NCBI RefSeq assembly: GCF_003334315.1
Contig: NZ_QOWR01000014.1
DNA: 64,000 bases
Strand: one strand, 5' to 3'
Source of the DNA: Escherichia coli
Lineage (GTDB): Bacteria > Pseudomonadota > Gammaproteobacteria > Enterobacterales > Enterobacteriaceae
Shown here piece by piece: positions 60,863 through 61,463 of this stretch; the stretch's first letter is position 1, and each line of letters opens with the position of its first letter. Below the pieces are notes generated by a model, which was given only the letters and a program-made list of their open reading frames with translations, did not search any database and had not been told where the DNA came from. The translations under genes were made by a program, and so were the position numbers.

Positions 60863-60880
60863 GCCAGCCTCACCCCTTAT

Positions 60881-60906
60881 TCCCACTTTGCCCCACAATT
60901 TCCCAC
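60881..60906 (-). promoter_or_regulatory. MraZ operator: three direct GTGGG repeats at 10-bp spacing
   Basis: Minus strand reads GTGGGaaattGTGGGgcaaaGTGGGaa, 19-45 bp upstream of mraZ start. Confidence 0.75.
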
Positions 60907-60913
60907 TGAAAGG

Positions 60914-60943
60914 AGTTTACGGAGCTGAGGAAAAGCTTGTCAA
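60914..60943 (-). promoter_or_regulatory. candidate Pmra sigma70 promoter
   Basis: Minus strand TTGACA-17 bp-TAAACT just upstream of the MraZ repeats. Confidence 0.45.
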
Positions 60944-61419
60944 GCCAGTCACAAGGCATACCGAGGTAAAAAACCCGATGTTTACGGCTAATATCAGCGT
61001 TGTTTATTTTACGTCCAACGTGCGAAGCAAATTAACGTTATGAATAGCTGTAAGAAAAAATCCCTCATCGTCATCACTGTTTTAAAATGACTCACTATTT
61101 TCCACAGCAAATATAAAGTGTCAGTTTGCGACGCGAGCGGCATTTTAGGACATATCTTCCCCGGTTAACAGTCCTTGTTACGTCTGTGTGGCGCTTGATG
61201 CCAGCGGGTTTGCGCAAAAGCAAAGAAAAGTGTTTGTTAAATCGGCAATTCATCGCCGCATGTAACAAAATAATGCAAAAACGCGCTGTCGATATCACTT
61301 AATTATTGTGAATTTCAGCTGGTGAGTTAATTAACGGGCGGGTTTAAAAGCATTTATCAATAATAGTCAGGAATAGTCTTATTTACTTTAAGCATATTGA
61401 TGTCCAGTCCCGTACTCTA

Positions 61420-61457
61420 CGCGCCAGAGGGAAATTCACCTGGCGCGTATTTTTGTT
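61420..61457 (+). terminator. hairpin plus T-run abutting cra 3' end, canonical only in plus orientation
   Basis: Stem cgcgccag/ctggcgcg with 12-nt loop, then tatttttgtt on the plus strand; no U-run on the cra (minus) side. Confidence 0.5.
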
Positions 61458-61463
61458 CGCGGC

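Follow-up and report, generated by a model that had tools for sequence, protein, structure and literature searches.

Genes and Features of the cra-mraZ Locus

The window, i.e., the whole stretch of 64,000 nucleotides of Escherichia coli DNA that was analyzed, runs opposite to the MG1655 genome, and the corresponding MG1655 (MG) coordinate equals 150496 minus the window position. The genes cra and mraZ are co-directional neighbors separated by a spacer of 601 bp (60863..61463). This region was found in 5424 of the 5426 complete E. coli genomes, with 100% identity to E. coli genomes. No annotated features were found in the spacer, either in MG1655 or in the other RefSeq E. coli records among those listed. 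The features described below are collected in Table 1. Rfam searched at permissive thresholds gave weak chance matches inside mraZ and none in the spacer.

For the comparison across species, 80 loci from other Enterobacteriaceae were taken, and the comparison covered 79 species. The order of cra and mraZ is retained in all the loci that extend to cra, with spacer lengths of 553-733 bp. A search with MraZ for loci beyond Enterobacteriaceae returned close relatives alone; a protein from 'Erwinia sp.' led to a locus resembling L082, the most divergent locus of the set. The conservation profile over 79 species consists of sharp blocks within a spacer that is otherwise 45-65% identical.

Approximately 450 bp in the middle of the spacer had been described from the letters as AT-rich and without a convincing ORF. 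Both properties were confirmed, with an A+T content of 60.5% vs. 45-48% in the flanking genes and no conserved reading frame, but this stretch is not featureless, since it contains conserved blocks and start sites. A small protein gene in the spacer was considered and rejected because no frame-specific peptide conservation was found: peptide similarity tracks the conserved DNA blocks in all frames on both strands, and in the E. coli ORF overlapping block C most third codon positions show the same invariance as the rest.

Table 1. Features of the cra-mraZ locus, in window coordinates
Feature	Position	Strand	Basis
cra (fruR) CDS	62468..61464	-	ORF and b0080 annotation in MG1655
T-run TTTTTGTT, an A-run on the cra strand	61450..61457	+	Read from the sequence
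GC-rich stem-loop (10-bp stem) next to the stop codon of cra	61418..61449		Folding and comparison
Mapped 3' end of the cra mRNA (MG 89082), 4 nt past the stem	61414	-	SMRT-Cappable-seq
C-rich, G-poor stretch past the hairpin, candidate Rho-loading region	61274..61404	-	C/G ratio
Third upstream start (MG 89143 = 61353) with TATTAT, -10-like (61365..61360)	61353..61365	-	Cappable-seq (score 6.2) and sequence
Blocks A, TTTGTATTATTTTGTTACAT (61279..61260), and A2 (61250..61228)	61228..61279	-	Identity in 79 species
Unannotated upstream promoter, mraZ sense	61107..61171	-	Conservation and Cappable-seq start site
Block C, consensus TTTTTCTTACAAATATTCATAACGTTAATTTGCCTC	61024..61059		Mean identity of 91% in 79 species
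Weak PdhR-binding probe (published), overlapping the -35 of Pmra	60920..60963		PMC3265435
Pmra (mraZ1p), sigma-70 promoter	60914..60943	-	Promoter scan, 10/12 consensus positions
MraZ operator, three GTGGG direct repeats with 10-bp phasing, approximately +1 to +25 relative to the Pmra start	60882..60906	-
mraZ CDS, first gene of the dcw cluster	60404..60862	-	ORF translates to MraZ; b0081 in MG1655

Promoter and Operator Proximal to mraZ

The mraZ-proximal elements of the spacer are an already published promoter and operator. In the E. coli literature, mraZ1p (Pmra) is the dcw cluster's first promoter, and repeats bound by MraZ are located in its promoter region. Autorepression by MraZ through the repeats at Pmra is described in the literature (Hara 1997 and Eraso 2014, as cited in later papers), and a sigma-70-dependent pause was previously studied at this promoter.

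The -35 hexamer TTGACA (60943..60938) and the -10 hexamer TAAACT (60919..60914) are separated by an 18-nt spacer. The start sites, MG 89588-89590 (window 60906-60908), fall approximately on the initial G of the first repeat; 89588 and 89589 are found by SMRT-Cappable-seq and 89590 by Cappable-seq, with a score of 27.2. Pmra thus has the arrangement expected of a sigma-70 promoter (hexamers 16-18 bp apart and a mapped start 6-8 nt after the -10), and it was found in 79/79 species in one alignment column with 98% identity. By these high-throughput starts the mraZ leader is 44-46 nt long vs. the 38 nt quoted in PMC5089854.

The operator repeats read GTGGGAAATTGTGGGGCAAAGTGGG on the minus strand. 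This array is the sole match in the window and was not matched in any of 100 shuffles. The operator surroundings (spacer positions 551-601) have a mean identity of 90% over 79 species. The sequence-only reading had pointed out both the GTGGG repeats and the TTGACA/TAAACT pair; it identified them correctly as the MraZ repeats and Pmra, apart from a repeat start at 60881 that was off by 1 nt. Nothing differs from the published E. coli Pmra/MraZ system: the locus, the hexamers, the repeats, and the autorepression are the same.

A published gel-shift probe for PdhR, TCGGTATGCCTTGTGACTGGCTTGACAAGCTTTTCCTCAGCTCC (PMC3265435), matches the window sequence at 60920..60963. A PdhR site was rejected as an account of the conserved blocks farther upstream, since it covers the flank of the Pmra -35 alone.

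Stem-Loop at the End of cra

At the opposite end of the spacer, the arms TACGCGCCAG (61418-61427) and CTGGCGCGTA (61440-61449) form a hairpin with a loop of 12 nt. Folded in a 61-nt context, it reaches -25.1 kcal/mol (z = -4.0), and 0/200 shuffles fold as well. The built-in terminator scan missed this hairpin because of its loop limit of 8 nt.

The two strands differ in what follows the stem. On the plus strand, the GC-rich stem-loop is directly followed by a U-run, as also found in our own hairpin scan; the corresponding T-run (61450-61457) is located 6 nt ahead of the stop codon of cra (61464-61466). The cra strand has AACAAAAA before the stem and GAGTACGGG after it, and the tail after the stem, GAGUACGGG, does not contain the U-run of an intrinsic terminator. 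The earlier description of the hairpin as canonical for the plus strand alone is therefore accurate. Its rarity is limited: hairpin-plus-T-run sites were found 14 times in the whole window on both strands vs. an average of 5.5 after local shuffling of the sequence, so that such a site is uncommon, yet within chance. For a given hairpin, the chance that a T-run with 6 or more T in 8 positions adjoins it is approximately 1% by our own calculation.

A bidirectional terminator, which had been suggested as one account, is not supported. By sequence the hairpin is not of this kind because the cra side lacks a U-tract; a run flanks just one side of the stem, and the only mapped 3' end belongs to one strand. 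Bidirectional intrinsic terminators with runs on both sides, located between convergent genes, were reportedly found with SEnd-seq by Ju et al. in 2019. The likeness is that one hairpin with an A/T run could in principle serve both strands, whereas the cra hairpin has a one-sided run and co-directional neighbors, with no convergent transcript known.

A stem-loop located no more than approximately 60 nt from the stop codon of cra was found in nearly all 79 species, and its sequence turns over. In the set of homologous hairpins, which belong to Escherichia and several Citrobacter, paired cells make up 90% vs. 31-56% in slid controls, and three pairs are altered on both sides, e.g., from C-G to U-A, which is a compensatory change. 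The flanks are distributed differently. The A-run upstream of the stem was found only in the four Escherichia species, none of which lacks it. A T-rich tail occurs on the cra side in several Citrobacter, in Kosakonia, in some Enterobacter, and in locus L082, and A-rich tails on the cra side in a few species. Since the flanks drift between genera, the conserved property is a stem at the end of cra and not a terminator pointing in the opposite direction.

The 3' End of the cra mRNA

The hairpin works on the cra (minus) strand, where it marks the 3' end of the cra mRNA. In the published SMRT-Cappable-seq data, a forward transcript runs from the cra start site at MG 87968 to a 'novel TTS' at 89082. 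Going by the column definitions of that dataset, 94 reads start at 87968, of which 20 end at 89082 and 24 in the 50 bp that follow, while 6 continue farther; a read-through operon cra-mraZ-rsmH-ftsL is also listed. RNA is tailed in this method, so 3' ends may be shifted by one base. The cra promoter has a Cappable-seq score of 33.4 (vs. 27.2 for Pmra). No 3' end at MG 8907x-8908x was found in the Term-seq tables (PMC7815308), and the cra 3' end at 89082 is thus known from one dataset. The bicyclomycin table of the same study (Adams et al., PMC7815308) has no entries at 8903x-8908x on either strand; expression of cra is weak and could lie under the thresholds of that study.

On the cra strand, therefore, a 3' end was found at the element and a U-run was not. 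Stable stem-loops without a U-tail are described for Rho-dependent 3' ends, with the 3' end just downstream and the rut site beyond; in the proposed model, the stem blocks 3'-to-5' exonucleases (Dar and Sorek, PMC6061677). The cra hairpin best fits this class of U-less protective stem-loops. It shares with the class a stable stem without a U-tract, an adjoining steady-state 3' end, and a C-rich, G-poor sequence beyond: the C/G ratio, a compositional proxy only, is 1.6-2.25 over approximately 130 nt past the stem, in 78-nt windows starting at spacer positions 60-120. It differs from the class in having a U-run on the opposite strand, and Rho dependence and trimming are here what we infer. Termination by Rho followed by trimming back to the stem is favored by the U-less stem, the adjoining 3' end, the C/G bias, and the diffuse ends downstream.

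The same 3' end could be explained by a weak, non-canonical intrinsic terminator of cra, with 89082 being a true Rho-free stop, formed without a U-tract and left untrimmed. The position of the end, 4 nt after a very stable stem, agrees with this explanation. Canonical cra-side U-tracts at the same place in Kosakonia, in some Enterobacter, and in L082 also agree with it and make it plausible that an ancestral intrinsic terminator has decayed in Escherichia. However, release of RNA polymerase at hairpins lacking a U-tract is inefficient. Moreover, the 24 reads ending in the 50 bp beyond the site vs. 20 at the site resemble diffuse termination, and the C-rich, G-poor stretch after the hairpin also counts against it. 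We consider an intrinsic stop rather unlikely.

Conserved Promoter and Other Start Sites within the Spacer

Three further start sites in the mraZ sense were found upstream of Pmra among the MG plus-strand entries of Cappable-seq: 89143 (score 6.2), 89237 (2.1), and 89360 (9.4). All three come from a single high-sensitivity dataset; the mraZ starts in SMRT-Cappable-seq are 89588 and 89589 only. The starts 89237, 89360, and 89590 are located 1-4 nt from those predicted by the hexamers.

The most notable of the three, at approximately 61136 (MG 89360), is preceded by a -35-like hexamer CTGTTA (61171..61166) and a -10 hexamer TAAAAT (61147..61142) with the start 6 nt after it; the discriminator GCCGC is GC-rich. 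TAAAAT is invariant in 79/79 species, and 64/79 contain CTGTTA. Hexamer spacing does not vary among the 79 species, whereas the intervening sequence is only 64% identical; such fixed spacing with a variable spacer is a signature of a promoter. The site has the features of a sigma-70 promoter, with a -35 that fits the consensus at 3/6 positions only. The conservation extends into the transcript: positions +1 to +30 (61136..61107) have 93% identity over 79 species, and the core TAAAATGCCGNTCGCGTCGCAAAC is retained even in L082. Among the 5424 E. coli genomes, the block is single-copy and unannotated; thus, a regulon-type repeat was rejected. Downstream of the 89360 start, no consensus structure was found by RNAalifold on either strand, and no coding signature was found in the block. 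At two U-runs farther downstream (MG 8943x-8945x and 8952x-8954x), the Term-seq tables contain no 3' ends.

Farther upstream, blocks A and A2 have identities of 92% and 76%, respectively. Block A ends at the weak start 61259 (MG 89237), and a -10-like hexamer, CATTAT, predicts a start near MG 89233. Block C is located between the 89360 promoter and Pmra; conservation over 79 species reaches 90% or more in 27 of its 36 columns, and it contains in most species a palindrome, TTACAAATATTCATAA, matching at 12/16 positions. No conserved RNA structure was found in block C. The blocks were compared by eye with consensus sites of ArcA, OmpR/RstA, PhoP, RcsAB, NrdR, and TyrR and of LexA, ArgR, IHF, and sigma-54/E/28; no good match was found. 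Literature searches found no paper on these conserved spacer elements.

Taken as a conserved control module of the dcw cluster, the promoter at 61171-61142 (minus strand) and the nearly invariant first 15-30 nt or so of its transcript, UCGCGUCGCAAACUGACAC..., form a tentative proposal, which we regard as possible but not probable. Within such a module, the first transcribed segment could be an operator for some regulator. Alternatively, expression of mraZ-ftsZ could be tuned, perhaps according to growth rate, by a leader or short RNA whose single-stranded 5' end is this segment.

Noncoding elements ahead of mraZ are found in other bacteria. The mraW RNA motif of Actinobacteria, included in Rfam, is an RNA element located upstream of dcw clusters. 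In Rhodobacter, the dcw cluster is preceded by UpsM and a long leader (PMC5089854). The E. coli spacer resembles both systems in having a conserved noncoding stretch and an extra start before mraZ. It differs from them in that no Rfam match, conserved structure, or sequence relation was found, and what is conserved is the primary sequence of a promoter and an initially transcribed region.

Search for a Plus-Strand Transcript

The orientation of the hairpin had been taken as a possible mark of an unannotated noncoding transcript on the plus strand, with an end expected near 61457. No 3' end was found at the corresponding positions (MG 8903x-8904x) in the Term-seq tables for three growth conditions (PMC7815308). 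No plus-strand promoters were found in the spacer at the threshold of the promoter scan. A relaxed scan gave three promoter-like sites, each matching at 8/12 positions; the best of them is matched in 21/79 species. Thus, the plus strand has the sequence of an intrinsic terminator, and neither Term-seq nor the promoter scan points to a transcript reaching it. The unannotated transcripts of the spacer start on the other strand, in the mraZ sense, according to Cappable-seq, of which the MG plus-strand entries were covered. On this coverage, a hidden plus-strand transcript is unsupported rather than disproved, with weak unconserved promoter-like sites and no mapped 3' end as the outcome.

Dual use of the hairpin, which would cap the cra mRNA and on the plus strand stop antisense RNA from the AT-rich spacer before it enters cra, is nevertheless suggested by the textbook form of the plus-strand terminator, in which a GC stem of 10 bp leads into UUUUUGUU. 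The A/T run is retained in all four Escherichia species, and the three weak promoter-like sites are located upstream, with predicted starts near 61017, 61068, and 61278. Retention of the A-run in the four species, together with the chance of approximately 1%, leaves room for a function on the plus strand. On the other side, these promoter-like sites are below the scan threshold and unconserved, and Term-seq in three conditions lacks the corresponding 3' end. Outside Escherichia, the run is missing or located on the other side, and the chance rate of hairpin-plus-T-run sites is not negligible. Dual use is improbable on this evidence.

An independent plus-strand noncoding RNA gene in the spacer, ending at the hairpin, has even less in its favor, namely the terminator-like 3' element only, and we judge it very improbable. 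Rfam gave no match in the spacer down to E = 10, conserved structure is absent on both strands downstream of spacer position 328, and neither a mapped 3' end nor an annotation among the listed RefSeq E. coli records was found. In addition, all the conserved blocks coincide with or adjoin start sites of the opposite sense. In total, some real plus-strand user of the hairpin terminator is unlikely.

Proposed Organization of the Spacer and Its Significance

Pmra and its operator are already known, and the hairpin is an ordinary 3'-end stem-loop of cra. We propose that the spacer combines this known Pmra/operator pair, a cra stem-loop acting together with Rho and trimming, and, in the middle, upstream control DNA of the dcw operon, all serving the minus strand; we assign this joint model a probability of approximately 0.6. 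According to the model, RNA polymerase arriving from cra would transcribe the hairpin and enter the C-rich, G-poor stretch, where most cra transcripts would stop over approximately the following 50 nt, presumably by the action of Rho. 3'-to-5' exonucleases would then trim these transcripts as far as the hairpin base, which would account for the mapped end 4 nt beyond the stem, and approximately one-eighth of the cra transcripts would run on into mraZ. MraZ, bound at the operator just downstream of the Pmra start, would repress its own operon. The middle stretch would be upstream control DNA of the dcw operon, with three further mraZ-sense starts, whose roles as promoters are putative. The T-run on the opposite strand would be an Escherichia-specific flank, at which Term-seq in three conditions showed no 3' end.

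For the reading of such loci, the orientation of a hairpin alone is poor evidence for a hidden transcript, as stem-loops without a U-tract are a recognized type of mRNA end. Strong selection acts on the spacer ahead of the main E. coli cell-division operon at sites for which the annotation gives no account, most clearly at the upstream promoter and the first bases of its transcript. A single modest lead comes from this analysis, i.e., the conserved upstream promoter, which is located on the strand opposite to the one first suspected. If the proposed control module is real, the hairpin at the end of cra would also set the amount of cra read-through reaching it. Located just ahead of Pmra, the module would then give the dcw cluster a further conserved input, of interest for how its expression is coupled to growth.

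Promoters and conserved blocks in the cra-mraZ spacer

An unannotated mraZ-sense promoter was found in the spacer between cra and mraZ (Table). Its -10 hexamer is identical in 79 of 79 Enterobacteriaceae species, the first 30 transcribed nucleotides are conserved at 93% in the same species, and published Cappable-seq data place a start site within this region, at MG1655 coordinate (MG) 89360. Another Cappable-seq start site, MG 89143, was found with a -10-like hexamer only ~60 nt downstream of the cra mRNA 3' end.

Two further conserved segments were found. Block A runs up to MG 89237, a weak start site in the Cappable-seq data, and a second block, AATTGCCGAATTAACAAACACTT, comes after it; TTTGTTA of block A and TAACAAA of the second block form an inverted repeat, ~24 nt apart. 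Block C contains a 12/16 palindrome, TTACAAATATTCATAA, in most species, and no promoter, ORF, or RNA structure accounting for this block was found.

Features of the cra-mraZ region (window coordinates)
Feature	Position	Strand	Details
Weak osmY RNA family match (Rfam)	60451-60529	-	within mraZ coding sequence
Pmra	60914-60943	-	18-nt spacer
Block C	61024-61059		91% identity across the family
Unannotated promoter	61107-61171	-	CTGTTA, 18 nt, TAAAAT
Block A and second block	61228-61279	-	block A, TTTGTATTATTTTGTTACAT
Start site MG 89143	61353-61365	-	TATTAT, -10-like

The osmY RNA match (19.9 bits, E = 0.11; gathering score, 46.9) was taken to be due to chance.

Comparison loci

Among the loci fetched from other assemblies, L022 is labeled Chryseobacterium sp. 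18061 and carries a cra-mraZ locus of the Enterobacteriaceae type. The whole locus is near-identical to that of Citrobacter sp. 18056 (L020), an assembly from the same study, an apparent mislabeling or contamination. In two species with longer spacers, REP-like palindromes (GCCGGGC...GCCCGGCCTAC) replace the simple stem-loop downstream of cra (L074:2285-2400 and L076:2368-2450). In Buttiauxella warmboldiae (L057:1580-2434), the cra match begins only from residue 49, which may reflect a frameshift, truncation, or assembly error.

The mraZ promoter Pmra

High-throughput start sites of Pmra, the published sigma-70 promoter of mraZ, map to MG 89588-89590 (window 60906-60908, minus strand), implying an mraZ leader of 44-46 nt that begins at the first MraZ box, vs. 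the 38 nt given by a secondary source (PMC5089854). A published weak PdhR probe overlaps Pmra only on the -35 side. The entire Pmra spacer is conserved equally with the hexamers (98% over 30 nt), and this conservation exceeds the needs of a promoter alone.
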